Shown one piece after another: positions 5,019-52,141 of a DNA stretch of 64,000 nt. Source of the DNA: Candidatus Kapaibacterium sp. (GTDB lineage: Bacteria; Bacteroidota; Ignavibacteria; Kapaibacteriales; WFXC01); assembly GCA_026996895.1 (NCBI GenBank), contig JALWJX010000082.1:38031-102030 (forward strand), in the 5' to 3' direction. The number at the start of each line of letters is the position of its first letter. The first letter of the stretch is position 1. Below the pieces are notes generated by a model that was not told the origin of the DNA, did no database searches, and saw only the letters and a program-made list of their open reading frames with translations. Position numbers and translations under genes: made by a program.

Positions 5019-5102
5019 AATGTTCAGTCTACCTTGCCAGCCTCACCGCCACTCCAACGTTTCAACTCCTTGCAATACGCCCCCTGCCACTTTCCTGCAA
5101 TG

Positions 5103-17349: not shown

Positions 17350-18568
17350 GCTGCTAATCCTATCCGAAGACTTCCCACCATATCCGGGTGGCATTGCCCA
17401 ATGGGCGCGGGGCATTGCGGTAGGTATTGCGAAAATGGGGGTCGAAGTTCACGTGCTTACCCGACACCGCAAAGATTTCATCCCGATTGCTCCTCATCCC
17501 AACGTGCACCTTCACTTCGTGTACGGCAAACGCTGGGCACAATTCCGCTCGCTGTACTATCGCCGCGCGGTTCGGGAACTGCTTGCTAAGGTCTTTGGCA
17601 TCGACACCATCATCGCCACAACGTGGAACGTCGCACGCGGTCTGGGTTCGATCATCGCAGCAGAACGCATCCGGTTGCTTACGGTTTTGCACGGAATGGA
17701 AATCACGCGTCGAATGCCGCGATGGAAACGGGCACTGCTATTGCACACGCTCTATAAAAGCAATCTGCTGATCGCTGTCAGCCAGTTTACGGCACAATCG
17801 GTGCTCCGCCTTGACCCCCTGCTCAAACACAAAATGTACGTTTTTCCCAATGGTGTCGATCCTGATCGCTTCCGTCCTGACATTGATCCCCAGCCGCTTC
17901 GAGAACGCTACCAGTTGACAGGCGAAGAAAAAATCCTACTGACGCTTTCCCGGATCATTGAGCGGAAAGGGCACGATCGCGTACTGGAAGCGCTTCCCTC
18001 TGTGATCCAGCACTTTCCTCACACGCGGTACTTTATCTGCGGTCCGGGCGATCCAGCATACGTTGCAAAGCTGCGAGCTATGGTAGAACAGAAAGGATTT
18101 GAGCCGTATGTCATTTTTGAGGGATATGTGCCGGAAGCAGACCTTCCTGTTTTCTACAACCTGTGCGATGTCTATATTATGCTTGCTCGAACGATTGCCG
18201 AAACCGGCGATGTTGAAGGCTTTGGCATTACCTATCTGGAAGCCAATGCGTGCGGTAAACCGGTCATTGCTGGATGCTCCGGCGGTGTAACGGATGCCGT
18301 CATCGATGGTGTCACGGGACTGTGTGTGGATCCCGACAATGTGCCAGCCATTGCCGATACTATCTGCCGACTGTTTGCCGATCCCGCACTGGCGCAGCGC
18401 CTTGGGCGCGCAGGACGGCAACGGATTGAACGGGAATTGAGCTGGGACCGAATTGCTGAAAAAATGCTGCCGCTTCTCTTTCCTCTGACGCACGTCAATC
18501 TTGCCGAACCAAATCCGTCATCGGTTTACAATGAACAAGTCGAAACAAAGCAGGGAGAAACGCAATGA
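17339..18568 (+). CDS. Family 4 glycosyltransferase.
   Basis: The N-terminus [25 protein letters not shown] and the C-terminal [29 protein letters not shown] are GT4-like. Confidence 0.8.
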
Positions 18569-19890
18569 ATTTTCAAAAGCTCACGCTAAAAGCACAGGAT
18601 GCTATGCAGAAGGCGCAGGAAATTGCGGCATCCCACAGCCATCAAGCGATCGAACCGGAGCACCTCCTTTATGCTCTGCTGCAAGATAGCTCCGGCATTG
18701 TACGCCCAATGCTGCTCAAGCTGGGAGCGAACGTTGACTACATCGAATCAGAACTGGAGCGTGAACTGGAACGATTGCCCAAAGTAAGCGGAGCGGCTCT
18801 GGGGAATCAGTATCTGTCCAAAACGCTGGTATCGGTGCTGGAAGCAGCGCTACAGGAAGCGCAGTCAATGCAGGACGAGTTTGTCAGCACTGAACACCTG
18901 CTCATTGCCCTTGCAGAATCCAAAACGGAAGCTGGACGGATTCTGACGGCGCAAGGTGCAACGAAGGAGACTATTTTACGGGTGCTCCAGGAATTCCGGG
19001 GATCGCGCCGGGTCACGGACCAGGCGGCTGAAGAGAAGTATCAGGCACTGAAGAAATACGGTAGAGTGTTGAACGACGAAGCCCGGCAGGGCAAACTGGA
19101 TCCGGTCATCGGACGGGAAGAGGAAATCCGACGTGTTTTGCAGGTACTTTCACGGCGAACCAAAAACAATCCCGTGTTGGTTGGCGATCCCGGCGTCGGG
19201 AAAACAGCGATTGTCGAAGGGATCGCCCAGCGAATCGTTAACGGAGATGTACCGGAGAACCTGAAGACCAAAACCATTGTGCAACTGGACTTAGCCGCCT
19301 TAGTCGCTGGTACTTCCTTCCGGGGACAGTTTGAAGAGCGGCTCAAAGCGGTGATCGAAGAAGTGGTCGAATCCAACGGGGAAATTATTTTGTTCATCGA
19401 CGAAATCCACACGCTGGTTGGAGCGGGCAGTGCGCAGGGCAGTATGGACGCTGCCAACATTCTGAAACCGCCATTAGCCCGCGGGGAGCTCCGATGCATT
19501 GGCGCTACTACGCTGGACGAGTACCGCAAGTACATTGAAAAAGACCCGGCGCTGGAGCGGCGATTCCAGAAAATTCTGGTTGAAGAGCCGTCGGTTGAGG
19601 AGACCATTTCTATTCTGCGGGGACTGAAAGAGCGGTACGAAGTTCATCACGGCGTCCGCATTACAGATGCTGCGCTGGTTGCTGCTGCGGAGCTATCCGA
19701 CCGTTACATCAACGACCGCTACCTGCCCGACAAAGCGATTGATCTGATCGACGAAGCTGCCAGCAAGCTCCGCATTGAAATCGACTCTATGCCCGAAGAG
19801 CTGGACGCACTGGAGCGGCGCATCCGACAACTGGAAATCGAGCGAGCGGCGCTGTTACGGGAACTGGAAGCAGCCCCAGCGTCGGCATAA
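18565..19890 (+). pseudogene. clpB: clpB-like chaperone gene truncated after 441 codons. It retains the Clp N domain, nucleotide-binding domain 1 and the start of the coiled-coil M domain; nucleotide-binding domain 2 is absent.
   Basis: It has Clp N-terminal repeats, the Walker A motif [20 protein letters not shown], and an NBD1 that ends in the M-domain helix ([23 protein letters not shown]) followed by TAA. No downstream ORF encodes the second AAA module. Confidence 0.6.
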
Positions 19891-27868: not shown

Positions 27869-28015
27869 CGGGAATTTCTATCCATTTGCCGGTCCGGGAT
27901 GCCATCTTCCCATCCACTCGCATTGGAGTTCGGAGCAACGCAGAGATCACTCCTCTACCTCGTTAAATCCGGTCCTCTGCGCAGGAGCATTCCACCCCTT
28001 CAAAACACCCGGCGA

Positions 28016-28038
28016 AAATTACGTAATTTTACGTATTG
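28016..28038 (+). promoter_or_regulatory. 23-nt conserved motif aaattacgtaattttacgtattg with an ACGTAA-TT-TTACGT palindrome. It lies 68 nt upstream of the 28106 operon and is identical at 52058-52080.
   Basis: It is an exact 23/23 match at two loci, both at the same distance upstream of paralogous giant-protein operons. A second palindrome, CTACATTTGTAG, lies at 28058-28069. Confidence 0.55.
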
Positions 28039-28105
28039 CAAGGGTTGCGGCTATTTGCTACATTTGTAGAGATTTTGGAACAGTAGCTCCAGACATAAAC
28101 AAAGA

Positions 28106-31100
28106 ATGCGAAGAGCGTGGATCAGTGCTATAGGAATTTTCATCAGCGTTTCGGTTATCTGGGGACAAACGCCTTCCAACGGCGCATTGCTGCTGACCAA
28201 CAATGCTGCTTTTGTTGTCCTCCCTGGCAGCGACATTACCATTGCAACCAGTGCGGGGATCAAACAGGAAAATGCCAGTGCAATCGTGCTGTACGGCGAC
28301 CTGGAAAATCACGGTAAGATCGTCCCCGGCGATGGATACCTGTTGTGTACGGGTCCTTCGACGCAGGTCCTCCGGGGTACTCGGGAAATTACTCTTAACC
28401 ACTGGTGGTTCCGGAAATCTGCTCCTTCCGACGTTGTCAAAATCGACAACGATGTGCGGGTCTATCAGCCGCTCACTGTGAATACGGTCACCTTAGAAAT
28501 CATCCACAGCAGCTCACACACGGTCACCCTGGACAGCGATCTTAAAATCAATGCTGATGGCAAGTGGATCGTTGCTTCAACGGGGACGACGGGACGCGAC
28601 CATCAAATTGTGCTCCGTGGCAATGCCCAAATCGATGGACAATGGATTCTCCGACCCATTCTGAACAACGACAACTATCGTGCCCGCCTGCGATTTCAAA
28701 CGACCGCAACGCAAACACTCACTGGCAGCGGGACGGTGCAATTCTACCAGGTCATTCTCGACAAAGGAAGCAAGGCAAACCGGGTTGAAAGCCGGATGAA
28801 CGTCGGGCTGAGCGCTCTGGGCTCAGGCTCTGCGATGGATTTCATCGCCGGTACGTGGCAGCAAACGACGGGAACGTTGACATTCGACAATGGCGTGAGC
28901 GTTTCTTACAACGAAACTATTGCCGCTAACGGATCACTCCAGATCCTGGGCGATGCTTCGATGATCATCGGGCAAAATGGCGTTGGAAGCTCTTTGATCC
29001 TCGACGGAGGCGAATTCATCGTAAACACGACTGGATTTGCCAATATCGGCAGCCAGAACGATAATTCCCTGCAATACACGGATGCTGGCGGCAGTCGATT
29101 CGAGCTCCATCAGGGAACAGTGACTGTTGCTGGACGCTTTTCACGCCAAACGGCAACGGGAACCAACACAATAGACTATCTCCAGACGGGGGGCACGCTG
29201 ATCGTCGGTGCCGTTGGTCACTCGAACGGCTCCCTCGGAACCTTTGATATCGGTGCCAGCGGCTCTTCCTTCACAATGGGCGGCGGGACTATCATTTTGC
29301 GCAATGCAAACAGCTCCGGAAGCAGCAGCCGTCCGGCAGATTTCAATGTTCAGGCAGCAACCGTTGCAGTCTCCGGCGGCACGGTTCAATTTGGCGATGC
29401 AGGGACGACAACACTGCAGCGATTCGATTATGATGTCCCCAACGGCGCATTGTGGCACGTATCGGTCAGTTCTGCGAACGCCACGGTTTACCCTTTTTCC
29501 CCAACTTCCGATCTCCGCATTCAGGGGAACTTCTACAATGCAGGCAGATGGGATGGGACACAAACGCGATCGGGCACTGCTGTCTCAACGGCTGGGATTG
29601 TCTTTGAAGGTAGTGGTGCCACGTCGCAAACGGTGCGAAGTCTGGGAACAACGACCTTTGCAACGTTGCGGATGAACCGCGGTGCCGGCAGCGGCATTGT
29701 GCAACTGCTCGATGACATTTCTGTCTCCCACCAGGTTGATCTGCGCGAAGGCAGCAATAGCCAGCCACAGATTCTGGCGCTGGGCAGTGGAGCCAATCTC
29801 TATGTGCTGAGCACCAGCACCACGGCAATTATCGACTACGCCAGTGCGCCAATCCGATACATTCGCACCAGTACCACCAGCGGCCGTGTCGTATGGAACG
29901 TTACGGCGGGAAAGACCTACTTCTTCCCCATAGGATCAGCCGAAAGTGGTGATACGTACACTCCCGCTGAAGTTGCTATCGGCAGTGGCGGCAGCGATGG
30001 CAGGATCGGCATCCGGGTCTCCCGTGGGCAACGTGCCGATGGAGCGCATCTCCAACTCCCGTCGAGTGCAACAGACTTTCTGCGACGATACTGGTCGATT
30101 TCCAACGTCACAATGACCCATCCTGCACAATGGACGTTCTACTATCAGGATGGCGCTGCATACCTTGCAGGCAGTGAAGCGAATCTGGCGCAAGCAGGGC
30201 GATGGCGACCAATCAACGAGGCGCCCGGTGGCAACTGGGTCGGCTACGCTGCAACCGTTAACCCATCACAGAATTTCTTCCAGTTGCCCACCCTTGACGC
30301 TTCACTGCTGGAAGGAGATTGGACCTTAGCCAATGAAATTTTCCGACAAATTTTCTACAGCCGCCAGAGCGGACCGTGGAGTCAGCACACTTCGTGGACA
30401 TATAGTCCTACCCACGTCGGACCCAGTGTGGCAACTGGCGTTTATCCCGCCGCCGCCACGGATTCTGCTGTTATAGGCGGCGGCAGTTATGGTGTCGGCA
30501 ACCACCATATCCAGTTGGATCTTTCCGTCACGATCGGTGGCGTTACTGTCGGCACCTCAGCTACCAACACCGGCACCTTAGAACTCCGGGATAACATCAT
30601 CAGCGGTGATTGGTTTGTCCTCCAAGATCAATCCACCCTGATGATTGGCTCGACCAGTGGCATTATGGCAGCCCCAGCGGCAGCAGGGAATGTGCAGACG
30701 ACCTATCGAGTTTTCGCCACAACCGCAACATACGTCTACAATGGCACAACGAACCAGACGATCGGTACTGCTCTTCCTTCGACCGTCGCAACATTTCGGG
30801 TCGACAACACAGGACCTGCCGGCAACAATCGCGTAACGGTAGACCGAACCATCCAGGTCACCCGGGACTTAGAAATCCTCCAGGGCGAATTAGACGTCAC
30901 AACGGTCACAATGCCCAATGTTAGCGCCAGCGGAAATTTTGTTCTGGCTACCGACGCATCTGTCCGCATAGGGGGGAGCAACAACTTCGGTGCAGCCTTC
31001 GCCGGTTACACCACTTACACCTTAGCCACCAGCAGTACGGTGGAATTCTACGGCAACAGCAAAACGGTCGATATGCCTCCAAACGGCGGACTCGGCTATG

Positions 31101-31291
31101 GCTATCTGGTCATCTCTGATGCACCAACGAAGTACATCAATGCACCGTTGCGGGTCCGTCGGGACGTGACGATCAATCCCGGTGCTTTCCTCTGGAACAA
31201 CGTCAGCGGTAATCAATTCCAGGTACTCGGCAATATTGTCAATCACGGGCAGCTATGCAACGACGGTATTATCGAAATTGGAATACCATAG
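28106..31291 (+). CDS. Large secreted Ser/Thr/Gly-rich protein of unknown function (1061 aa), encoded upstream of giant fiber-like protein 1.
   Basis: It has a signal peptide (MRRAWISAIGIFISVSVIWGQ) and low-complexity beta-rich composition. It appears co-operonic with 31416-39587, with a 124-nt gap and no intervening motif. Confidence 0.6.
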   Translation: MRRAWISAIGIFISVSVIWGQTPSNGALLLTNNAAFVVLPGSDITIATSAGIKQENASAIVLYGDLENHGKIVPGDGYLLCTGPSTQVLRGTREITLNHWWFRKSAPSDVVKIDNDVRVYQPLTVNTVTLEIIHSSSHTVTLDSDLKINADGKWIVASTGTTGRDHQIVLRGNAQIDGQWILRPILNNDNYRARLRFQTTATQTLTGSGTVQFYQVILDKGSKANRVESRMNVGLSALGSGSAMDFIAGTWQQTTGTLTFDNGVSVSYNETIAANGSLQILGDASMIIGQNGVGSSLILDGGEFIVNTTGFANIGSQNDNSLQYTDAGGSRFELHQGTVTVAGRFSRQTATGTNTIDYLQTGGTLIVGAVGHSNGSLGTFDIGASGSSFTMGGGTIILRNANSSGSSSRPADFNVQAATVAVSGGTVQFGDAGTTTLQRFDYDVPNGALWHVSVSSANATVYPFSPTSDLRIQGNFYNAGRWDGTQTRSGTAVSTAGIVFEGSGATSQTVRSLGTTTFATLRMNRGAGSGIVQLLDDISVSHQVDLREGSNSQPQILALGSGANLYVLSTSTTAIIDYASAPIRYIRTSTTSGRVVWNVTAGKTYFFPIGSAESGDTYTPAEVAIGSGGSDGRIGIRVSRGQRADGAHLQLPSSATDFLRRYWSISNVTMTHPAQWTFYYQDGAAYLAGSEANLAQAGRWRPINEAPGGNWVGYAATVNPSQNFFQLPTLDASLLEGDWTLANEIFRQIFYSRQSGPWSQHTSWTYSPTHVGPSVATGVYPAAATDSAVIGGGSYGVGNHHIQLDLSVTIGGVTVGTSATNTGTLELRDNIISGDWFVLQDQSTLMIGSTSGIMAAPAAAGNVQTTYRVFATTATYVYNGTTNQTIGTALPSTVATFRVDNTGPAGNNRVTVDRTIQVTRDLEILQGELDVTTVTMPNVSASGNFVLATDASVRIGGSNNFGAAFAGYTTYTLATSSTVEFYGNSKTVDMPPNGGLGYGYLVISDAPTKYINAPLRVRRDVTINPGAFLWNNVSGNQFQVLGNIVNHGQLCNDGIIEIGIP

Positions 31292-31415
31292 CTCCGGTGT
31301 ATCATAGCGGTGTTACGGGGGCTGTCAAACGCTATCTGGCACTTTGTGCGCAACCTACGCACACTGCACTGAAAATGGCAAAATATTTTGGGTAATAAAT
31401 CAAGGAAGTCTGGTG

Positions 31416-34400
31416 ATGAAACACAGAGTCCAATTGATACTTCTGATCTGGTTGATTTTTTCACCCTTACTCTGGTCTCAGGGCAATCCCAGCGTTGGAA
31501 TCGGCACTTTTACCCCTGATCCTTCTGCAATCTTAGAGCTTCGCTCCACATCGAAGGGGTTCTTGGTGCCACGAATGACAACGGCACAACGGAATGCGAT
31601 CAGCTCTCCTGCTCTCTGGCTGCTGATCTTCAACACTGATACCCAGCAGTTTGAATACTGGAACGGCACGGTATGGATCCCGCTGATTTCTATACAAAAC
31701 GTCAGCAACAGTGCCTGGTCTCTCAGTGGCAACACGCTCACCGGGAGCGAGTTTCTTGGATCTGTGAATCTCCAGCCGGTAGTGTTCAAGACCAATGGTG
31801 CGGAGCGAATGCGGATTTCCACGACCGGCAATGTTGGTATCGGCATCATTACGCCGACCAATACCCTGCACGTTAAAGCAACCAGCAATCCCCTGCGACT
31901 GGAAGGCTTGCAGTCTCTGAGCAACGCTTCTACAATCTTAGCGGTCGATGCCAACGGCGTTGTCTACACCACCAGTGCCAGTTCCTTTACGGCATCGAAC
32001 GCCTGGTCGCTGACAGGAAATGCCGGCACTGATCCAAACACCGACTTTCTGGGTACGACGGACAATCAACCGCTGGTGATTCGGACGAACAACACCGAGC
32101 GGATGCGGATTCTGGCATCCGGTTTGGTCGGGATCGGAACCAATACCCCAACGAACACGTTGCACGTCAAAGCAACGAGCAACCCACTGCGGTTGGAAGG
32201 CGTGCAAACTACTGCCAGCGCTTCGACCCTGTTAGCCATCGACGCCAATGGGGTCGTGGTCTCGACCAGTGCCTCGACTTTTGTTGCCAACAACGCTTGG
32301 GCACTCAGCGGCAACACGCTCACTGGCAGTGAGTTCCTCGGATCAGTCAATGCCCAGCCGGTAGTGATCCGAACGAACAACACCGAGGCGATGCGGATCG
32401 ATGCCAATCAACGGGTGGGAATTGGAACGAACGCACCGAGCCACACCCTGCACGTTGCTGCGCCCAGCAATCCGTTGCGACTGGAAGGGTTGCAGTCATT
32501 GAGCAATGCGGGAACGATCTTAGCCGTGGATGCCAACGGTGTTGTCTACACCACCAGTGCCAGTGCCTTTGCTGCTGCTAACGCCTGGTCGCTGACAGGA
32601 AATGCCGGCACTGATCCGACAACGAATTTCCTGGGCACTACTGACAATCAACCGTTGGTGATCAGAGTCAATAATCTGCAAGCTGTGCGAATTGAACCAA
32701 CGAACCAAACGATCAATATCATCGTGGGAACTTCCAACATCGTCACTGCGGGCGTCTATGGAGCTGTTATTAGCGGTGGTGGATATGGAAACAATGAAAA
32801 TAAAGTCACAGACAACTTCAGTACAGTAAGCGGAGGAGTTTCAAATCAAGCTGGGAACAATAACGCTGATGTAACCGATGCACAGTACGCCACGGTCGGA
32901 GGAGGCTACGGAAATACTGCCAGCGGTTTAGGCAGCACTATTAGCGGTGGATGGAACAACACTGCCAGTGCTGCCCGGAGTACGATTGGTGGAGGATATA
33001 ACAACAATGCCATCGGATGGGGAACCACTATTGGGGGAGGTGCTGATAATATTGCCAGCAGCGAGTATAGCACAGTCAGTGGTGGGAAAAACAACAATGC
33101 CAACGTTGCTTATAGTACCATTGGAGGAGGTCTGCAAAATACTGCCAGTGGTCAATATAGTACCATTGGAGGAGGTCTGCAAAATACTGCCAGTGGTCAA
33201 TATAGTACCATTGGAGGAGGTCTGCAAAATACTGCCAGTGGTCAATATAGTACCATTGGAGGAGGCAGTGCTAATATAACAGGTGGCGATTGGAGCACTG
33301 TGAGCGGAGGATGGACAAACATTGCCAGCGGAGGTGGCAGCGTTGTTGGTGGTGGACGGGGCAATACAGCAGGTGGAGCCTATAGTACCATACCTGGAGG
33401 TCTCAACAACTCTGCCCTGGGTGATTATACCTATGCAGGAGGAAGAGCGATGTATTTGAGTACCTCGGCCAACCATACCTTTGTCTGGGGCTATGCAACG
33501 GCAACTTCTGCTATCACCGCCTCCGACGCCTTCCTCATCGGTCCCTACGGGAACAACTACCGCGTTGGGATCAATGTCGTTAATCCTACTGCTGCTCTGC
33601 ATGTCACCGCTGGAACGTGGACGTATCCATTGCGACTGGAAGGATTGCAGCCACTGAGCAACGCCGGAACGATCTTAGCGGTCGATGCCAACGGCGTTGT
33701 CTACACCACCAGTGCCAGTGCTTTTGCTGCTGCCAATGCCTGGACGCTGACAGGGAATGCCGGGACTGATCCAGCAATTAACTTCTTGGGTACAACGGAC
33801 AATCAACCACTGGTGATTCGCACCAACAACCTTGAACGGATGCGGATCTCCACGACCGGCAATGTCGGCATTGGCATCAGCACGCCGACCAACACGTTGC
33901 ACGTCAAAGCAACGAGCAACCCACTGCGGTTGGAAGGCGTGCAAACTACTGCCAGTGCTTCGACCCTGTTAGCCATCGACGCCAATGGGGTCGTGGTCTC
34001 GACCAGTGCCTCGACTTTTGTTGCCAACAACGCCTGGGCACTCAGCGGCAACACGCTCACTGGCAGTGAGTTCCTCGGATCAGTCAATGCCCAGCCGGTG
34101 GTGTTCAAGACCAGTGGAATTGAAGCGATGCGGATCGACGTTGATCAGCAGGTTGGGATCGGCACCAGCACACCAACGAACACCTTGCACGTTAAAGCGA
34201 CCATCGATCCGTTACGACTGGAAGGGTTGCAAACCACCAGTGCTACTGCGACGGTCCTGGTTTCGGACGCTGCGGGGATCGTGTACACCACCAGCGCTAG
34301 CGCTCTTGCTGCTGCCAATGCCTGGTCGCTCACTGGCAACGCTGGAACCAACCCAGCGAGCAACTTCTTAGGCACCACGGACAATCAGCCACTGATTATC

Positions 34401-37400
34401 AAAGTTAATAACGCACAGGCATTGCGCATAGAGCCAACTGTCGGATCCCCAAATATTCTGGGCGGCTACGGATTGAACAGTATCTCCAGTGGCGTAGTTG
34501 GAGCTGTTATCAGCGGTGGGGGTAGCACTGGATTATCGAACAAAGTCACCGACAATTATGGTGTTATCGGAGGCGGCGTGGGAAATCAAGTGGGAAACAA
34601 TAGCGGAGGAGCTATCGATGCTCAGTATGCAACCGTAGGTGGCGGCTATGGAAACACTGCCAGCAGTACCTCGAGCACCGTGGGTGGCGGTGAACTTAAC
34701 ATTGCCAGTGGACTCCGGAGCACTGTTGGCGGCGGTTATAGCAACACTGCCAGTGGCGATAGGGGTACTGTGGGAGGAGGTTACGGGAATACCGCCAGCG
34801 GCCCGGGCAGCACCGTTGCTGGTGGCGAGAATAATACTGCCAGTGGTGGCGTGAGTGCTGTGGGTGGCGGTGACAACAATATTGCCAGTGGTGATGTGAG
34901 CACTGTGGGTGGCGGTTATAGCAACATTGCCAGCGGTGCAGGAAGTACTGTGGGCGGCGGTACAAACAACACTGCTAGTGGCAATACCAGTACCGTATCA
35001 GGTGGAGCTTTCAATACTGCAGCAGGTGACGTTTCCTGGGCTGGAGGAGCATACATGTATCTGTCGCCCACCGCCGATCACACCTTTGTCTGGGGCTATG
35101 CAACGGCAACTTCTGCTATCACCGCCTCCGACGCCTTCCTCATCGGTCCCTACGGGAACAACTACCGCGTTGGGATCAATGTCGTTAATCCTACTGCTGC
35201 TCTGCATGTCACCGCTGGAACGTGGACATATCCATTGCGATTAGAAGGCTTGCAACCACTGAGCAATGCGGGGACAATCTTAGCGGTTGATGCCAACGGT
35301 GTTGTGTACACCACCAGTGCCAGTGCGTTTGCTGCTGCTAACGCCTGGGCACTGACAGGGAATGCCGGAACCGATCCAGCAATCAACTTCTTGGGTACTA
35401 CGGATAATCAACCGTTGGTGATTCGCATTAACAACCTTGAGCGGATGCGGATTTCCACCATCGGCAACGTCGGCATTGGCATCAGCACGCCGACCAACAC
35501 CTTGCACGTCAAAGCGACCAGTGATCCGTTGCGGTTAGAGGGCGTGCAGAGCAGTGCTAATGCGACGACCCTGTTAGCCATCGACGCCAGTGGAGTGGTA
35601 GTATCGACCAGCGCCTCGACCTTTGTTGCCAACAACGCTTGGGCACTCAGCGGCAACACCCTCACTGGCAGTGAGTTCCTCGGATCGGTCAATGCGCAGC
35701 CGGTGGTGATCCGGACCAACAACACCGAGGCGATGCGGATCGATGCCAACCAACGGGTGGGGATTGGAACCAATGCACCGAGCCACACCTTACACGTTGC
35801 TGCGCCCAGCAACCCGCTGCGGTTGGAAGGCTTGCAACCTCTGAGCAATGCGGGGACAATCTTAGCCATTGATGCCAATGGCGTGGTGTACACGACCAGT
35901 GCAACATCCTTCACCGCTGCCAATGCCTGGTCGCTCACAGGAAACGCCGGGACTGATCCAAACACCGACTTTCTGGGCACGACGGACAACCAACCGCTGG
36001 TGATTCGGACGAACAACACCGAACGGATGCGGATTCTGGCATCCGGACTGGTCGGCATCGGAACCAGCACACCGAGTCATACGTTGCACGTCAAAGCAAC
36101 GAGTGACCCGTTGCGGTTAGAGGGCGTGCAGAGCAGTGCTAATGCGACGACGCTGTTAGCCATCGATGTCAATGGGGTCGTGGTCTCGACCAGTGCCTCG
36201 ACTTTTGTTGCCAACAACGCTTGGGCACTCAGCGGCAACACGCTCACTGGCAGTGAGTTCCTCGGATCAGTCAATGCCCAGCCGGTAGTGATCCGGACGA
36301 ACAACACTGAGGCGATGCGGATCGATGCCAGTCAACGGGTGGGGATTGGAACGAACGCACCGAGCCACACCCTGCACGTTGCTGCGCCCAGCAATCCATT
36401 GCGTCTGGAAGGCTTGCAGTCATTGAGCAATGCCGGAACCATCTTAGCGGTCGATGCCAACGGCGTTGTCTACACCACCAGTGCAACATCCTTCACCGCT
36501 GCGAATGCCTGGGCACTCAGCGGCAACACCCTTACTGGCAGTGAGTTCCTCGGATCGCTCAATGCCCAGCCCGTGGTGTTCAAGACTAATGGCGTAGAAC
36601 GAATGCGAATTACTGCTGCTGGTGACATTGGCATTGGAACCACAACTCCAGGTGCCAAAGTTGACATCCGGGCGAATAGTGCCAGCGATCTGCTGGTTCG
36701 CATCTGGAACGCTGGTGGCAATGCAAAATTCCGCATCGTTGGTCAGGGTGGCAGTGCACAACCACGGTTTCAGTATACGGTCAACGCTGAATGGCTCTCC
36801 GAGATTGCCGGCAACACCAGTACAGGTTTGGAATTCCGAGTTCGTGCTCCGTCGGATCCAAATGACGAAGCAACTCTGGCAACCCGAACCCGGATGGTGG
36901 TTGGGAGGACGGGCAATGTCGGCATTGGAACGCTATCGCCAACGAATCGACTCCACGTCGTTGCTCCCAGCAACCCACTGCGACTGGAAGGGTTGCAGTC
37001 ATTGAGCAATGCGGGAACGATCTTAGCGGTCGATGCCAACGGCGTTGTCTACACCACCAGTGCAACATCCTTCACCGCTGCGAATGCCTGGGCACTGAGT
37101 GGGAATGCGGGAACCGATCCAAACACCGACTTTCTGGGTACGACGGATAATCAACCGCTGGTGATTCGGACGAACAACACCGAACGGATGCGGATTCTGG
37201 CATCCGGACTGGTCGGGATTGGAACCAATACCCCAACGAACACGTTGCACGTCAAAGCAACGAGCAACCCACTGCGGTTGGAAGGCGTGCAGACTACTGC
37301 CAGCGCTTCGACCCTGTTAGCCATCGATGTCAATGGGGTCGTGGTCTCGACCAGTGCCTCGACTTTTGTTGCCAACAACGCTTGGGCACTCAGCGGCAAC

Positions 37401-39587
37401 ACGCTCACTGGCAGTGAGTTCCTCGGATCAGTCAATGCCCAGCCGGTAGTGATCCGGACGAACAACACTGAGGCGATGCGGATCGATGCCAATCAACGGG
37501 TGGGGATTGGAACGAACGCACCGAGCCACACCCTGCACGTTGCTGCGCCCAGCAATCCGTTGCGTCTGGAAGGGTTGCAGTCATTGAGCAATGCCGGAAC
37601 GATCTTGGCGGTTGATGCTAACGGTGTGGTCTACACCACCAGCGCCAGTTCCTTTACAGCATCGAACGCCTGGTCGCTGACAGGAAACGCCGGGACTGAT
37701 CCGACAACGAATTTCCTGGGAACTACCGACAATCAACCACTGGTGATTCGCACCAACAACCTTGAACGGATGCGGATCTCCACGACCGGCAATGTCGGCA
37801 TTGGCATCAGCACGCCGACCAACACGTTGCACGTCAAAGCAACGAGCAACCCACTGCGGTTGGAAGGCGTGCAAACTACTGCCAGTGCTTCGACCCTGTT
37901 AGCCATCGACGCCAATGGGGTCGTGGTCTCGACCAGTGCCTCGACTTTTGTTGCCAACAACGCTTGGGCACTCAGCGGCAACACGCTCACTGGAAGTGAA
38001 TTTCTCGGATCGGTCAATGCGCAGCCGGTAGTGATCCGAACGAACAACACTGAGGCGATGCGGATCGATGCCAACCAACGGGTGGGGATTGGAACCAATG
38101 CACCGAGCCACACCTTACACGTTGCTGCGCCCAGCAACCCGCTGCGGTTGGAAGGTTTACAACCACTGAGCAACGCCGGAACGATCTTGGCGGTTGATGC
38201 TAACGGTGTGGTCTACACCACCAGCGCCAGTTCCTTTACAGCATCGAACGCCTGGTCGCTGACAGGAAACGCCGGGACTGATCCGACAACGAATTTCCTG
38301 GGAACTACTGACAATCAACCGCTGGTGATTCGGACCAACAATGCGGAACGGATGCGAGTGTTAGCCTCTGGCTACGTTGGTGTTGGGACGACCTCTCCAA
38401 CTGCCCGGTTAATGGCAGTCGAAGATGCACCCGGACAGGCAGTGATGCGAATCCAGAATCTGGATGCCGCTGGTCTTTCCGGTATTGAATTTCTGACCCA
38501 CACCTCTGCTGTAATGGGGTACGTTGGGCTGGAACCTGGCGGCGGTGCTCTGCGCATCTGGAGTCAGTCAAATATGATCCGGTTCTATACCAACGGCGTA
38601 GAACGGGTGCGAATCACGACCACCGGAAACGTTGGAATCGGATCCTTAGATCCGCAATATCGGCTGCACATTGAAGGCGATGGAATGATGTACGCCTCTG
38701 GAGAATTCGGCAAGGGCGCAACGATGCCAGAAGGAGCAAAGACGGCGTTCATCTGGAATCCGCGCAAAGCGGCATTGCGAGCAGGATCGGTGACAGCAGA
38801 TCAGTGGAACGATGCTCAGGTCGGCGCTTACACCGTCGCTTTTGGTAAAAACACGATTGCCAGTGGCGCATTTTCCGTTGCGGTTGGAGAAAACACGGTT
38901 GCTGAAGGAGCGGCTGCGTGGGTCGGCGGTCGGAATTTGCATCTGCTCCCGGATGCAACGGGTACGTTTGCCTGGGGCAATACCGAACACTCCACATCGA
39001 TCGAAACCAGTTATGCGTTCCTGATTGGTCCTGGAGATACGCCCTACCGTGTCGGGATCAACACGGCAACACCGACGTACGCACTGGAGTTGCCCAATGA
39101 CTCGCGAGCGAACGTGGGACAGGCACGAGCAAACGCGTGGCTGACATACGCAGATCCACGGATGTGGAGTGCAACTGAACCCATTGGCGCAACCAGTGAG
39201 CTGTTGTCACAACTCCAACCGCTTCGATACCGCGATGTTGCAGGCAAGAGCGGCTTCAGCTTTGATCCCCAGCAACTGGCAGCGGTTCTCCCGGAAGCGG
39301 TGGGGGTTCCAGCAGACAGCTCGCAGCAGTGGAGTATTAACTATGCAGCGCTCATTCCTGTGCTGGTCGCAATGCTCCAGGAACAGCAGCAGCAAATCCA
39401 GCAATTGCGGCAACAGAATCTGGCATTGCAACAGCAAGTTGCCGAAACACAGCAACTCCGGAAGCGACTGGCAAAAATGGAGCAGCAACTGTCAACGCTG
39501 GAACAGTTACAGCAGCAGGTTCGGTACCTGATCCAGCTCCAGCGTGAAGCACGCCCCGTTCCAACAGCAAGCAACGGCGGAAAATAA
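31416..39587 (+). CDS. Giant secreted repeat protein (about 2,720 aa). It has a signal peptide, about twenty ~95-aa modules, two YadA-head-like Gly-rich 14-mer blocks, a C-terminal tail-fiber intramolecular-chaperone (peptidase S74)-like domain and a Gln-rich coiled coil.
   Basis: It has a signal peptide (MKHRVQLILLIWLIFSPLLWSQ) after an aggaag ribosome-binding site. The module consensus is NAWSLTGNAGTDP..FLGTTDNQPLVIRTNN.ERMRI...VGIGT.TPT.TLHVKATSNPLRLEGLQ....LAVDANGVVYTTSAS. The STIGGGLQNTASGQYSTIGGG repeats resemble the YadA head. The C-terminus (LQPLRYRDVAGKSGFSFDPQQLAAVLPEAVGV....QWSINYAALIPVLVAMLQEQQQQIQQL) resembles the S74 chaperone domain. Confidence 0.8.
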   Translation: MKHRVQLILLIWLIFSPLLWSQGNPSVGIGTFTPDPSAILELRSTSKGFLVPRMTTAQRNAISSPALWLLIFNTDTQQFEYWNGTVWIPLISIQNVSNSAWSLSGNTLTGSEFLGSVNLQPVVFKTNGAERMRISTTGNVGIGIITPTNTLHVKATSNPLRLEGLQSLSNASTILAVDANGVVYTTSASSFTASNAWSLTGNAGTDPNTDFLGTTDNQPLVIRTNNTERMRILASGLVGIGTNTPTNTLHVKATSNPLRLEGVQTTASASTLLAIDANGVVVSTSASTFVANNAWALSGNTLTGSEFLGSVNAQPVVIRTNNTEAMRIDANQRVGIGTNAPSHTLHVAAPSNPLRLEGLQSLSNAGTILAVDANGVVYTTSASAFAAANAWSLTGNAGTDPTTNFLGTTDNQPLVIRVNNLQAVRIEPTNQTINIIVGTSNIVTAGVYGAVISGGGYGNNENKVTDNFSTVSGGVSNQAGNNNADVTDAQYATVGGGYGNTASGLGSTISGGWNNTASAARSTIGGGYNNNAIGWGTTIGGGADNIASSEYSTVSGGKNNNANVAYSTIGGGLQNTASGQYSTIGGGLQNTASGQYSTIGGGLQNTASGQYSTIGGGSANITGGDWSTVSGGWTNIASGGGSVVGGGRGNTAGGAYSTIPGGLNNSALGDYTYAGGRAMYLSTSANHTFVWGYATATSAITASDAFLIGPYGNNYRVGINVVNPTAALHVTAGTWTYPLRLEGLQPLSNAGTILAVDANGVVYTTSASAFAAANAWTLTGNAGTDPAINFLGTTDNQPLVIRTNNLERMRISTTGNVGIGISTPTNTLHVKATSNPLRLEGVQTTASASTLLAIDANGVVVSTSASTFVANNAWALSGNTLTGSEFLGSVNAQPVVFKTSGIEAMRIDVDQQVGIGTSTPTNTLHVKATIDPLRLEGLQTTSATATVLVSDAAGIVYTTSASALAAANAWSLTGNAGTNPASNFLGTTDNQPLIIKVNNAQALRIEPTVGSPNILGGYGLNSISSGVVGAVISGGGSTGLSNKVTDNYGVIGGGVGNQVGNNSGGAIDAQYATVGGGYGNTASSTSSTVGGGELNIASGLRSTVGGGYSNTASGDRGTVGGGYGNTASGPGSTVAGGENNTASGGVSAVGGGDNNIASGDVSTVGGGYSNIASGAGSTVGGGTNNTASGNTSTVSGGAFNTAAGDVSWAGGAYMYLSPTADHTFVWGYATATSAITASDAFLIGPYGNNYRVGINVVNPTAALHVTAGTWTYPLRLEGLQPLSNAGTILAVDANGVVYTTSASAFAAANAWALTGNAGTDPAINFLGTTDNQPLVIRINNLERMRISTIGNVGIGISTPTNTLHVKATSDPLRLEGVQSSANATTLLAIDASGVVVSTSASTFVANNAWALSGNTLTGSEFLGSVNAQPVVIRTNNTEAMRIDANQRVGIGTNAPSHTLHVAAPSNPLRLEGLQPLSNAGTILAIDANGVVYTTSATSFTAANAWSLTGNAGTDPNTDFLGTTDNQPLVIRTNNTERMRILASGLVGIGTSTPSHTLHVKATSDPLRLEGVQSSANATTLLAIDVNGVVVSTSASTFVANNAWALSGNTLTGSEFLGSVNAQPVVIRTNNTEAMRIDASQRVGIGTNAPSHTLHVAAPSNPLRLEGLQSLSNAGTILAVDANGVVYTTSATSFTAANAWALSGNTLTGSEFLGSLNAQPVVFKTNGVERMRITAAGDIGIGTTTPGAKVDIRANSASDLLVRIWNAGGNAKFRIVGQGGSAQPRFQYTVNAEWLSEIAGNTSTGLEFRVRAPSDPNDEATLATRTRMVVGRTGNVGIGTLSPTNRLHVVAPSNPLRLEGLQSLSNAGTILAVDANGVVYTTSATSFTAANAWALSGNAGTDPNTDFLGTTDNQPLVIRTNNTERMRILASGLVGIGTNTPTNTLHVKATSNPLRLEGVQTTASASTLLAIDVNGVVVSTSASTFVANNAWALSGNTLTGSEFLGSVNAQPVVIRTNNTEAMRIDANQRVGIGTNAPSHTLHVAAPSNPLRLEGLQSLSNAGTILAVDANGVVYTTSASSFTASNAWSLTGNAGTDPTTNFLGTTDNQPLVIRTNNLERMRISTTGNVGIGISTPTNTLHVKATSNPLRLEGVQTTASASTLLAIDANGVVVSTSASTFVANNAWALSGNTLTGSEFLGSVNAQPVVIRTNNTEAMRIDANQRVGIGTNAPSHTLHVAAPSNPLRLEGLQPLSNAGTILAVDANGVVYTTSASSFTASNAWSLTGNAGTDPTTNFLGTTDNQPLVIRTNNAERMRVLASGYVGVGTTSPTARLMAVEDAPGQAVMRIQNLDAAGLSGIEFLTHTSAVMGYVGLEPGGGALRIWSQSNMIRFYTNGVERVRITTTGNVGIGSLDPQYRLHIEGDGMMYASGEFGKGATMPEGAKTAFIWNPRKAALRAGSVTADQWNDAQVGAYTVAFGKNTIASGAFSVAVGENTVAEGAAAWVGGRNLHLLPDATGTFAWGNTEHSTSIETSYAFLIGPGDTPYRVGINTATPTYALELPNDSRANVGQARANAWLTYADPRMWSATEPIGATSELLSQLQPLRYRDVAGKSGFSFDPQQLAAVLPEAVGVPADSSQQWSINYAALIPVLVAMLQEQQQQIQQLRQQNLALQQQVAETQQLRKRLAKMEQQLSTLEQLQQQVRYLIQLQREARPVPTASNGGK
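31700..38350 (+). repeat. Intragenic tandem and interspersed DNA repeats (285-bp modules, many more than 90% identical over more than 300 bp) inside the giant gene.
   Basis: Near-identical stretches occur at about 32170-32480, 37260-37570 and 37850-38150, and at about 31830-32000, 33820-33990 and 37780-37950. The same spurious antisense ORFs (MHAFQPQWVARCFDVQRV...) appear three times. Confidence 0.8.
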
Positions 39588-42247: not shown

Positions 42248-42835
42248 TTACTCAAACAAACGCTGGAAAATTCTGAGAAACTGAGCCTTTGCACGCGAAA
42301 TTTTCATTTTTGCCCCATTTAAAGTTGTTCGGAGCTTTTGAGCGATATAAGTGAGCGGGCGGTTTTTAAAATATCGCAGAATAAACGCTTTCCGATATTC
42401 CTGTCGCATTCGGCGGAGAATTTCCCCCAGAATTCTCCAGAATTGCTGTTCCTGAAGTGGCGACATCAGAGATTGCTCTATCAACTGAAAATTCGGCTCG
42501 TGCTCGGTGTTGAGTAAAAAACGTGCCCTTCGATTCTGTGCCAAACGGTAAGTAAGACTGAGATTGATCACAATCCGCGTTAGCCAGGTTTTAAAGCTAC
42601 TCTCGCCCCGAAACCCGGATATATGGAAATACACCCGGATGAAGGCTTCCTGCACAATATCCTGAGCATCTTCTCGATTCTTTACGTACCGCAGGGCAAT
42701 CTGATAGGCGTATCGTTGATATCGTTTTACCAGTTCGGTAAAAGCTCTCTGCTGCAGCGGAAGTTCTTCCTGACACCGCTTTACCAATTCTTCATCCGAC
42801 AACTTCTGTATTTCCTCCACCTGCATAGAAACCAT
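42248..42835 (-). CDS. ECF-type RNA polymerase sigma-70 factor.
   Basis: Region 2 (YQIALRYVKNREDAQDIVQEAFIRVY) and region 4 are recognisable, and the protein has ECF length (195 aa). Confidence 0.8.
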   Translation of the reverse strand: MVSMQVEEIQKLSDEELVKRCQEELPLQQRAFTELVKRYQRYAYQIALRYVKNREDAQDIVQEAFIRVYFHISGFRGESSFKTWLTRIVINLSLTYRLAQNRRARFLLNTEHEPNFQLIEQSLMSPLQEQQFWRILGEILRRMRQEYRKAFILRYFKNRPLTYIAQKLRTTLNGAKMKISRAKAQFLRIFQRLFE

Positions 42836-45789: not shown

Positions 45790-48700
45790 TTACTTCACCC
45801 CGATCAGCCGGGTTACTGTCCACACACCGTCGGAGCAGCGGAGGAAAAAGGTGCCGCTATGCCCAAGCTGAGCACGGTGGAGAACCAATGTACTGTGCCA
45901 GCTTCCGGTGGTGGGATCATACTCAAATGCAGACAACGGCGGAACAAGGGTAAGGATCAACTGTCCAAGAGCAGAGTAAATTTGAATCCGAAAGTTCGAA
46001 GGTGACCGAACTCCCGCTAACTGAATCATTGCTTGATCTGTCAGTGGATTAGGCGCAATCGTAACGCTTAAACTCCCGGTAGTAGGGTTGAGCAGTTGCG
46101 GCGCCCCTTCTTTGTAGATACGAAGATGAAACGTCCCCGGTTGATAGTGCTGCGGCAAAACATAGCTGAAACCATCCGGAAAGAGCCAGCGCACGCTGTC
46201 GATCCAGACGGGCGAATACTCCATATCACCCAATCCCACTAGCAAGGGAAGCGATACAAGGACATCAGCAGACTGGTCACTATAAGACTGCGGAATAGCA
46301 ACCGTATGCCAGCCCGTCTGCGGCAAAGTGCGCAACGCAGGATCTAAAGGGGTAAGAACCGTAGCATTCCATCGGGCAAAAATGACATATTGCTGCGGCT
46401 GCAATTGTTGCAGTATCGGCTCCAAAACCCCTCGAATCTCCAACCATACTGTATCGCCCGGTGCTCCTTCGAACGGCACAATACTCCAGCGGGCAACGGC
46501 TGTTCGCTGCGCCTGTCCAATCACGGGAAATGTGACTATGAAAGGACATAGTCCCAACAAACGCACCTGCAGGGTATCGGTATGGAGTGTATCCAGAGCA
46601 AAAAATTCAACTGCCAGTTCCAGCGCCTCACCCGGTCTCAGTGTATCAGGCAATAACGGCTTCATCCACACAATTCGGAACAGGGTAGCAGCCTGAAAAT
46701 GTGCCTGTTGCACCCACAGCGGCGTTGTCCCGCGATTCACAATGCGAATGGTATCGATGCGGCGAGTTGCGACTGGAACAGCAGGCAATGACACCGCTGT
46801 CGGCGCTGCAACTGAATCAAAGTGGCGGAAACCGGTTACGGCAACACCCGTGCGCTCTCCGCAGGGCAAGGACGTCAGCCATAGCGTATCGCTCCACTCA
46901 CCCTTCGGCGGTATACCCCGGATGTGGAATGCTACGGAATCAAAGGGCAAGAGCGTCGAAGCAGCTAAATCACCGTCCATCCACGCAGGAAGTTGACCCA
47001 CCGTAAGGAACAACGTATCCGCTGTACGGTTGCTTATCCACAATGTGGTATCAAGCTGGGGACGGCACACGCGAAGAGAATCCAGTTGGAGTTCGGGAAC
47101 ACCAAGGGACGGGACACGCGCGGCTGCCAGGAGCGGAATTTTCATCGTATCAACGCAGCCTCGAACGGAATATGCCACCGACAGAGCAGCCCGAAACTCC
47201 CCATCCAAAGCAGGCTGGCAAACGATGCGGGCAATAAACGTTTCCTGAGGCGCTAAAAATGGAGGCAGAGAAGTTGATAGCACAAACGGCGCTGGTACCG
47301 TCCATTGATGAATCCACAACGTATCGGTCGGCGACCGATTCTGTAACTGTACAGCCGTATCAAGCGGAAATCGGCAGAGAGTGTGGACACCGTAATCCAC
47401 CACTGCGAGATCCGTTGTAAAAGGCTGTAATTTGTTTCCGCTCACTGCGATCGGAATGGCATATTGACACGGCGTATACCGCAATTTGAGGGTATCGGCA
47501 AAAACGCCCTGTTGGTAGGGAGCAAATCGAATCGTTACGGTTGTCGCTGCACCGGGTGGTAGCAGGATCGGCAAAGGGGTCTGAATGGCAAAAGCATCGG
47601 AAGCATCGGCGGCAACAATGGTATGGGCAACCGTGTCAGGATTGACAATCTGGATGCTCTGGGTCGTCTGTGGAGCACACTCACTTAGCGTGCCAAACTC
47701 TATCACTGAAGGGAACGTTTGCAAAGGAACTTCGGGCAAAAGAAACACAGGGATCGCTGGAGTCACGATGGTATCGCATTCTCCGATTAGCAAAGCACGA
47801 TACCACAGGGTATCCCCCGGATCGCCGCTTGTGGTTGTCCGAAGTGTTGGTGAGGCTTGATAGTACACCGGTTGCCACGGCCGATCCTGACGATCCCGCC
47901 ATTGCCACCGATATGCTAAGGCATCTTCCGCCCGGACAAACAGGGTTATTTCTTCTCCAGGACAGACCGTGGGAGAAGTCGACAGTGTAATCACTTTCGG
48001 CGACGCCGCCTTCCGCACGGAAGCGCCGCGAGTTGCTGTCGAACACTCCTGATAGAAAAATATCGCTCGAAACAGCGCCGATGGTGACACCGTATCTGCC
48101 CGGCGAATCACCAGAAATTCTTCTGTTGTCCCCGGCAACAATTGCCACGTATACCCTCCATCATCACTCCGCTGCCACCGAACAGAGTCGTAAGGATAGG
48201 CAGAAGCATAGAAAACCGCAGAGTCATTGGGACATACGCTCTGGGTCACAGGATGCACCGCAATTTGTGGCGCTGGTCGCAACCGAAGCCGCGCTGGCTC
48301 ACTTACCGCGACGCCACAAACATTACTCAAGCGCAACCGAAACAGGGCATTCTGCTGTGATTGTCCAACGGTTGGCAAAAATAACTGGTATCGGCGCTCG
48401 TACGGCAGCGGCGTCCAGGACTTCCCTCCGTCCGTACTCCGCTCCCACACTCGCTCCGGCAGCGGATAGCCTCCGCCTTCTGCTTCAAACAGTACATCGC
48501 TGCCCGGACAGACCGTCACATCCTCTGGATGCCGGCTAATCTGCGGTGGCTGATACCACACGATCGCTCCTTCCGAACGGTCATAGAGGACAGATCCATC
48601 CGTAGAGGTGGCAACAACAGCAAACAGCGTGTCTTCTGTTGACCGCTCTGGCAATATCCACTGAAAAGTGGTATCACGTGCCGCCACCACACCTATCGGA

Positions 48701-50799: not shown

Positions 50800-51019
50800 T
50801 CACGTTTCCACTCCGCGCTCCGATCCTATAATACGGTTGACGAACATCTCCAGACAACCGATAGAAAAGCAAAGGTATCTTAATTACATCAGCAAGCTGG
50901 CATATACCTGACCATCTTTGGTGACGATGGACGGTTCAGGTTGGTGATCACAACAGGTCCATCTGTGAGAAAGCAGGAAGTTATCCGTCTTGCAGGCTTT
51001 GCAAAAACCGAAGAAACCG

Positions 51020-51922: not shown

Positions 51923-52057
51923 AATGGTATAGCCCCGATACCGGCATAGCCCAGCGAACTCTGAATCTTTACTGAAGAACGGTCCTCCAGGGTAAGTTGG
52001 CGGCCTATTCTCGGCTATTTTGCTCTTTCTTGCCGATCGACTCAGCGCTTCCGGTTC

Positions 52058-52080
52058 AAATTACGTAATTTTACGTATTG
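52058..52080 (+). promoter_or_regulatory. Second copy of the 23-nt palindromic motif aaattacgtaattttacgtattg, 62 nt upstream of giant fiber-like gene 2.
   Basis: It is identical to 28016-28038. Confidence 0.55.
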
Positions 52081-52141
52081 ATTTTTCAGCTGCCAACGTG
52101 TATTTTTGCCGTGATATACGCAAAATACAGGAGAAAACACG

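Follow-up and report, generated by a model that had tools for sequence, protein, structure and literature searches.

The window analyzed here, a 64-kb stretch of DNA matching Candidatus Kapaibacterium, comes from a lineage of the phylum Bacteroidota that is known solely from metagenomes. Its gene content is that of an ordinary bacterial chromosome and includes genes for PFK, pyruvate kinase, glycosyltransferases, a TonB receptor, an MCP, and an ECF sigma factor. Two loci on the forward strand encode giant fibers. At the first, the opening gene of operon A (28106 to 31291) encodes a secreted "leader" of 1061 aa that has a signal peptide and belongs to no Pfam or NCBIfam family; a giant fiber gene of ~2720 aa (31416 to 39587) follows. 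At the second, a paralogous fiber gene of 2034 aa (52142 to 58246) encodes a signal peptide, UspA1/YadA-head-like repeats (UspA1_rep, E = 3.9e-13), and a Q-rich C-terminal coiled coil. The two fibers share near-identical internal modules, in which GNVGIGT...LHV alternates with UspA1/YadA-head-like runs of SxVGGGxxNxASG, and both terminate in the Q-rich coiled coil. Neither a T9SS C-terminal domain nor a Peptidase_S74 domain was detected in the giant fibers, and a C-terminal intramolecular-chaperone (Peptidase_S74) domain, lacking Pfam support, is not claimed. Elsewhere in the window, a 441-aa ORF with Clp_N, AAA, and AAA_lid domains (18565 to 19890) could be a truncated or frameshifted ClpB/ClpC-like gene.

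An identical 23-mer, AAATTACGTAATTTTACGTATTG, precedes both loci at 28016 to 28038 (+) and 52058 to 52080 (+), at distances of 68 nt and 62 nt from the ATG codons at 28106 and 52142, respectively, as the original prediction had stated. No further match with up to three mismatches is present in the whole 64-kb window, and the chance expectation from 100 shuffles is 0; on these counts, chance and a frequent repeat were both rejected as the origin of the 23-mer. Both copies are intergenic (27869 to 28105 and 51923 to 52141), with all overlapping ORFs being short. A position inside a genuine upstream ORF was rejected for this reason and because the DNA upstream of approximately -60 is unrelated in the relative L008.

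Read from 5′ to 3′, the 23-mer consists of an A-rich flank (28016 to 28019 in copy 1), a 16-bp two-fold-symmetric core, TACGTA-ATTT-TACGTA, and the triplet TTG. The core, TACGTAATTTTACGTA, is the predicted operator and occupies 28020 to 28035 and 52062 to 52077 (strandless). The inverted repeat ACGTAA-TT-TTACGT that had been noted previously is correct and grows by one base on each side to TACGTAA-TT-TTACGTA, a two-fold-symmetric site within the 16- to 20-bp range of LuxR/GerE operators. Because TACGTA is its own reverse complement, this sequence equals two TACGTA hexamers 10 bp apart (TACGTA-N4-TACGTA), and the tandem and inverted descriptions of it are equivalent and inseparable. A direct-repeat, OmpR/PhoB-type reading of two TTACGTA units was dropped in favor of a symmetric dimer once the linkage to GerE-type regulators described below emerged. 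Palindromes of the general form TAnnTA-N4-TAnnTA occur just twice in the window, and both are the operator cores.

The last three bases of the 23-mer (28036 to 28038 and 52078 to 52080, both +) correspond to the TTG of a -33 promoter element and do not belong to the operator. At both loci, a box of the form TAnnTTTG follows the TTG after exactly 20 nt: TACATTTG at 28059 to 28066 (+) and TATTTTTG at 52101 to 52108 (+). A consensus for Bacteroidota housekeeping promoters was reportedly described by Bayley in 2000 and Chen in 2007. It is cited as TTTG at -33 and TAnnTTTG at -7, with the -7 box located at -12 to -5 relative to the transcription start (PMC9723704). In both cases here, the box lies 15 to 120 nt before the start codon and the TTG 19 to 21 nt before the box, as in Bacteroidota sigma-A promoters, and TTG-N19-21-TAnnTTTG is thus predicted to be the -33/-7 promoter that the housekeeping sigma factor of Bacteroidota uses. 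The -7 box of the first locus lies within the palindrome CTACATTTGTAG (28058 to 28069), which had been noted as a second palindrome found at the first locus only. The palindrome is indeed confined to that locus, but the functional element that it contains is the -7 box rather than an extra operator, and the second locus carries this box at the identical offset.

Full matches to TTG-N18-21-TAnnTTTG in the 64 kb are limited to the two 23-mer loci. The TAnnTTTG box as such is not over-represented in the window (26 occurrences versus 23 expected), but 8 of the 26 are located 15 to 120 nt upstream of gene starts, where 0.79 would be expected under random placement. This concentration upstream of genes indicates that the organism uses the Bacteroidota -33/-7 promoter type. 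A scan for E. coli-type -35/-10 promoters, the wrong type for this phylum, was uninformative (9 matches versus 7.7 expected). An ECF sigma factor gene is present at 42248 to 42835; an ECF promoter was rejected as a reading of the motif, given that the -7 box is of the housekeeping type and that the hexamers are 10 bp apart rather than 16 to 17. With transcription starts predicted at approximately 28071 and 52113, the 16-bp core would lie at -51 to -36, centered at -43.5. In geometry alone, this is the arrangement of a class II activator site, which is centered at approximately -41 to -44, abuts or overlaps the -35 region, and keeps a fixed register.

Neither the motif, nor a near-copy of it, nor a consensus -7 box precedes the fiber gene at 31416 (interval 31292 to 31415), which bears out the earlier observation that no copy is found there. 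TAnnTTTG is absent between 28066 and 33476. On this basis, it is plausible that 28106 to 31291 and 31416 to 39587 are cotranscribed. A third giant secreted protein is encoded at 45790 to 50799 (-); it has 1669 aa and choice-of-anchor D/ASH-type Ig domains. Its gene has its own TAnnTTTG box at 50870 to 50877 (-) without a TACGTA operator, which places it outside the fiber regulon.

Conservation was examined in relatives by scanning one genome per GTDB species for the exact 20-mer TTACGTAATTTTACGTATTG, with the -7 box left unconstrained. All seven matches fall in two Candidatus Kapaibacterium genomes. Together with the two copies in the window, these make nine sites; TAnnTTTG is located exactly 20 nt after the TTG in 9/9, and a paralogue of a fiber or fiber leader is encoded downstream in 9/9. 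The promoters fall into four classes, which precede the 1061-aa leader and giant fiber (class A), the 2034-aa fiber (class B), a 725-aa paralogue of the class A leader (class C), and a paralogue of the class B fiber (class D). When the four classes are aligned, the invariant positions are confined to A-ATTACGTAATTTTACGTATTG and TA--TTTG. An interspersed repeat or MITE does not account for this pattern: there are two copies in 64 kb and three to four exact copies per related genome, all of them at promoters, and homology around the motif is confined to 21 to 23 nt plus the -7 box. Identity limited in this way points to selection on the motif itself and effectively excludes both the duplication of a cassette and the spread of a mobile repeat. 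The symmetry, the association with promoters, and the fiber or leader context of all nine sites support the view that the 23-mer is a non-random, dyad-symmetric element behaving as the operator of a dimeric transcription factor would, as its geometry had suggested in the original prediction. The exact Kapaibacterium copies fit a small putative regulon, which could be larger, since the search in relatives was confined to exact 20-mers.

Among more distant relatives, leader-gene orthologues of 37% identity are not preceded by the motif. The wiring is therefore lineage specific, with no phylogenetic footprint past close relatives. In one such relative (L095/L096), a gene for a 1084-aa Reg_prop/Y_Y_Y/His_kinase sensor (4694 to 7948) is located 52 nt upstream of the 37%-identical leader orthologue, which suggests a different regulatory wiring. 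The 1061-aa class A leader (tail at window 31250 to 31291) and the 725-aa class C leader (leader genes in L009/L003) have similar tails, ...N(H/N)G.(L/I).N(D/G)G.IE(I/V)G. The tail sits just ahead of the next large gene in both cases, and neither leader belongs to a known family.

Beyond Kapaibacterium, metagenomes were scanned with the pattern ACGTA-NNN-TTACGT-N-TTG-N19-21-TAnnTTTG, into which the TTG and the -7 box were built. In total, 73 loci were found, with GC contents of 25% to 60%, in samples from the human gut, the termite gut, marine sites, and other sources. The positions left free in the pattern are biased: the base before the first ACGTA is nearly always T, which completes TACGTA, and the second ACGT is followed by A in almost all matches. 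The 638 kb of fetched DNA was then rescanned for TACGTA-N4-TACGTA with at most one mismatch, yielding 130 sites. Nearly every one is either a proximal site, followed by TTG and, after 19 to 21 nt, by TAnnTTTG, or an extra copy 22 to 34 bp upstream of a proximal site. After removal of related sequences, 38 distinct promoters share this layout. Their spacer is 20 nt in 32/38, an A-tract lies ahead of the core, with A at -3 in 32/38, and TTG abuts the core in 38/38, most of these having been preselected with TTG in the pattern.

The constancy of the register partly reflects the search itself, as most metagenome matches had to contain the TTG and the -7 box. Unbiased support for it comes from the nine Kapaibacterium sites, from the additional sites found in the rescan, and from the loci reached through their regulators (see below). 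Extra copies in L036, L038, L048, L068, and L074 were not selected for the box, and the -7 box is still found at the same offset. The distal extra cores are not followed by TTG, which shows the 16-mer operator to be separable from the TTG of the promoter.

Downstream genes are annotated for about a third of the 36 independent locus groups. Most encode secreted or surface proteins, and the rest include small proteins and regulators; no rRNA, tRNA, or ribosomal-protein gene is found among them. Examples are a T9SS protein with Por_Secre_tail, a 950-aa Big_2 lipoprotein, beta-helix proteins, a DUF5018 lipoprotein, and an eCIS_core/Tlde1/lysozyme toxin, and the protein downstream of the site in L037 shares the N-terminal module of the Kapaibacterium fibers. 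Judged from these sequences, the putative operator-plus-promoter module is widespread in Bacteroidota and fronts many unrelated genes. The proposal of a regulon dedicated to fiber genes, which the exact Kapaibacterium copies fit in that all of them are found at fiber or leader genes, thus has to be qualified. A full-text search of incomplete coverage found no published description of a TACGTA-type element in Bacteroidota promoters.

Several copies of the motif may also be present on one contig. L068 (JACCDZ012025751.1, 1 to 11707), an AT-rich contig (GC 0.28) that resembles phage DNA in its small genes on the same strand, carries 13 copies of TACGTATAACTACGTA-TTG-N20-TAtcTTTG, approximately one per gene or gene pair. 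A protein encoded on it has distant phage homologues only. Two other phage-like contigs, L048 and L036, carry 7 and 5 copies of the motif, respectively, and no GerE gene is visible on any of the three fragments. A general phage promoter was rejected as an explanation, as a scan of IMG/VR recovered only one viral family.

Candidate regulators were sought by clustering all ORFs located up to 4 kb from the sites across the 36 locus groups. Two families recur in at least three groups, one with a GerE/LuxR-type helix-turn-helix (6/36) and the other a 62- to 71-aa protein of unknown function (4/36). LuxR/GerE-type genes are the sole recurrent regulator neighbors, and every GerE ORF in the fetched loci lies 0 to 302 nt from a site. 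They comprise response regulators, encoded immediately downstream of the site in L011, upstream in L013, and divergently in L034, where the core is present in four copies; small LuxR solo proteins (L019 and L074); and a divergently encoded protein of ~520 aa (ORF frame of 572 codons) that combines TPR repeats and a membrane segment with a GerE domain at its C terminus, found on 12 or more human-gut contigs. The 62- to 71-aa family (MEKNIIDQEIIALAERTKYY...CDSWLSEEEG) matches no Pfam family, and its genes immediately follow motif promoters in four independent locus groups from the termite gut (L017, 3146 to 3358 [-]; L026; L025; L049). The L026 copy is divergent from a motif-driven lipoprotein gene, and the family could be a co-regulator.

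The association was also approached from the protein side. Six homologues of the TPR-GerE regulator (33 to 62% identity) were fetched with their flanks, and TAnnTA-N4-TAnnTA sites were present in the adjacent intergenic DNA at 6/6 loci. Four of these loci contain five promoters with the same register (16-mer, 3 nt, N20, and TAnnTTTG): L088, L089 (twice), L092, and L093. The sites front neighboring genes for Big_2 or OmpA-like surface proteins, which is the layout seen in Kapaibacterium. The hexamers are variants, namely, TAGGTA/TACCTA in L088, L089, L092, and L093 and TAAGTA/TACTTA in L091. The recognition helix of the regulator goes with the central dinucleotide of the hexamer, RTIDTHK with CG, RT(V/I)D(A/S)HK with GG/CC, and RTVGTHK with AG/CT, in what is a small sample, and a simple rule from recognition helix to operator mispredicted one case (P0014). 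Operator variants that differ with the neighboring regulator are predicted for the operator of a transcription factor and not for an element intrinsic to the polymerase. HU-HIG (PF18291) genes adjoin two of the TPR-LuxR regulator loci (L090, 218 to 844; L091, 942 to 1391).

A second test of this kind, with three NarL-type response regulators 56 to 62% identical to that of L034, found nearby sites for 0/3. The helices of these homologues differ (RTV[DN]WHK), and response regulators need not adjoin their targets. Long tandem arrays of short repeats lie beside NarL-type response-regulator genes in L098 (3149 to 3300; unit of ~25 nt, aagcctgcggcgataaaagggataa) and in L099 (1580 to 1975; gttagtg/ataactga-type units).

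Neither the window nor the 8-kb Kapaibacterium loci L003 to L009 yielded a GerE gene in searches with tblastn, a home-made GerE HMM, and Pfam (neighboring genes); the search for regulators in Kapaibacterium returned a single stand-alone receiver domain, in L005. The assignment of a regulator to Kapaibacterium therefore rests on analogy with the other lineages, and we infer both its identity and its signal. We consider it probable that the 23-mer unites the operator of a LuxR/GerE-family dimer with the -33 element and that it serves, most likely by class II activation, the co-regulated fiber operons of Kapaibacterium. The 23-mer would form the upstream half of a composite promoter composed of the A-rich flank, the 16-bp operator, TTG, the 20-nt spacer, and TAnnTTTG. 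A dimer of a LuxR/GerE-family regulator, with a NarL/FixJ-type helix-turn-helix, would most likely bind the operator at about -51 to -36 (center, ~-43.5), directly beside sigma region 4, and would most likely act there as a class II-type activator of transcription. One regulator encoded outside the window could thereby switch on three to four giant-fiber or leader operons together. Next to the absence of a GerE gene near the Kapaibacterium sites, the NarL-type homologues without sites, and the mispredicted operator, further observations weigh against this reading: core promoter elements of perfect consensus are atypical of activator-dependent promoters, and the phage-like contigs combine 5 to 13 copies of the motif with no visible GerE gene.

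The sign of regulation might also be the opposite, with the same operator and protein family serving a repressor. A dimer at -51 to -36 would then silence a strong consensus promoter until a signal arrives, for instance by making the alpha-CTD or sigma region 4 inaccessible. Repression stays a rival because the -33 and -7 elements are of perfect consensus at all Kapaibacterium sites, so that an activator is not obviously needed, and because the multiple distal copies 22 to 34 bp upstream could support cooperative repression or looping. We regard it as unlikely, however. Repression does not call for base-pair-exact spacing from the -33 element, and repressor sites usually overlap the -35/-10 region or the start, whereas here the spacer and the -7 box are free of overlap. 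Activation is favored by the strictness of the register, which is kept even where the -33 triplet departs from consensus (TAT in L089 and TTT in L092), as expected for class II activation.

Alternatively, the core could be an intrinsic, UP-like element that marks very strong promoters, its reader being either the alpha-CTD of RNA polymerase or a single factor universal in Bacteroidota. The element is AT rich with an A-tract, spans -36 to -57, and contains two hexamers separated by one turn of the helix; its fixed register, its phylum-wide occurrence, and its abundance on phage-like contigs that lack a visible regulator gene would all suit such a role. Against this stand the invariant CG core, which is unlike minor-groove UP elements, the extra copies that are out of register, the lack of rRNA, tRNA, and ribosomal-protein genes among the annotated downstream genes of about a third of the locus groups, and the rarity of the element in IMG/VR. 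A single universal reader, moreover, cannot explain hexamers that shift to TAGGTA/TACCTA or TAAGTA/TACTTA with the adjacent regulator. We therefore consider an intrinsic element improbable.

That no dedicated factor is involved, and that a promoter cassette was recently duplicated or gene converted among fiber paralogues, is very improbable. The downstream genes are paralogous and identity is perfect over 23 nt, but it ends abruptly at the motif: the spacers, 5′ untranslated regions, and upstream flanks of the four classes are unrelated while the -7 box is kept, longer homology between the classes was looked for and not found, and the core recurs in unrelated lineages and genes. A site of DNA inversion or methylation-based phase variation is the least credible of the alternatives, for although Bacteroidales switch surface proteins via invertible promoters, the targets here are surface proteins, and TACGTA is a 6-bp palindrome of the kind that restriction-modification systems target, no long inverted repeats bracket the promoters (only chance-level, imperfect pairs of 11 to 16 nt within 800 bp), and each of the three genomes has both promoters in the ON orientation.

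The favored reading, an operator for a LuxR/GerE-type dimer placed against the -33 element, has several relatives among known systems. In E. coli, NarL and NarP bind "7-2-7" heptamer pairs, TACYYMT-N2-AKRRGTA, through a dimer of GerE-type helix-turn-helix domains. The site described here is likewise 16 bp long and two-fold symmetric, with arms that begin TAC... and end ...GTA; a dimer of LuxR/GerE C-terminal domains is predicted to bind it, and response-regulator genes adjoin some sites (L011, L013, and L034). In contrast to NarL/NarP sites, the hexamers are TACGTA, TAGGTA/TACCTA, and others. The site is also fixed against the -33 element of a Bacteroidota promoter, a constraint not shared by NarL sites, which are found in many positions and orientations. 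Many of the regulators, moreover, are not response regulators but TPR-transmembrane-GerE or small solo proteins. At class II promoters with a lux box or tra box (LuxR, TraR, and LasR), a dimer of GerE-type domains binds a palindrome centered at approximately -42 to -44, against or across the -35 region, and activates by contacting RNA polymerase. The palindrome described here has the same predicted position, and as in those systems, where the regulator is autoregulated, the regulator gene is often adjacent or divergent. Those boxes, however, have 18 to 20 bp and are bound by proteins with an acyl-homoserine-lactone-binding domain; no autoinducer domain was seen in the regulators here, and the promoter is TTG/TAnnTTTG with a 20-nt spacer.

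The promoter itself agrees with the Bacteroidota housekeeping type in its TTG, its TAnnTTTG, their spacing, and the distance to the start codon. Upstream of -33, no defined element belongs to that consensus; the 16-bp core is an add-on at a subset of promoters. The UP element of the E. coli rrnB type is similar in being AT rich at approximately -40 to -60 and in having two sub-sites one helical turn apart, and differs in that the element described here has a CG-containing palindromic hexamer, variants that track the regulator, copies out of register, and no housekeeping genes seen downstream.

Tentatively, the motif may be one specificity class of a phylum-wide module in which GerE regulators of the TPR-membrane, response-regulator, and solo types dock on TAnnTA-N4-TAnnTA sites welded to the -33 element and switch large surface, adhesin, and toxin genes, including those of human-gut Bacteroidales. 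The central dinucleotide of the hexamer and one to two helix residues would then form a re-programmable recognition code. The operator and the regulon appear to be new and the regulator family is known; few operators have been defined in this lineage and for this promoter type. For Kapaibacterium, the analysis identifies promoters for three to four operons that encode surface fibers of several thousand residues and makes their co-regulation likely; the transcription starts and the operator mutations that it predicts are exact. Few such sites have been mapped well for the transcription factors of Bacteroidota, and a compact module found in lineages as different as hot-spring Kapaibacteria and the Bacteroidales of termite and human guts would aid the annotation of regulons for surface proteins, among them adhesins, T9SS cargo, and eCIS-type toxins. 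The module might also provide orthogonal, switchable promoters for engineering gut Bacteroides. The concept is that of a transcription-factor operator beside a promoter, which extends known principles rather than overturning them.

Two further observations concern genes downstream of motif promoters in the metagenomes. In L060, a motif promoter at 2814 to 2860 precedes a 592-aa ORF that resembles polymorphic toxins and combines eCIS_core (DUF4157), Tlde1, and phage-tail-lysozyme domains. A family of membrane proteins of ~60 aa (MIYTITITISILVALNF...LSPTGS) is encoded 83 to 91 nt downstream of promoters of the form TACGTAA(C/G/T)(G/A)(T/G)TACGTA in seven loci (L010, L014, L030, L035, L053, L067, and L071).
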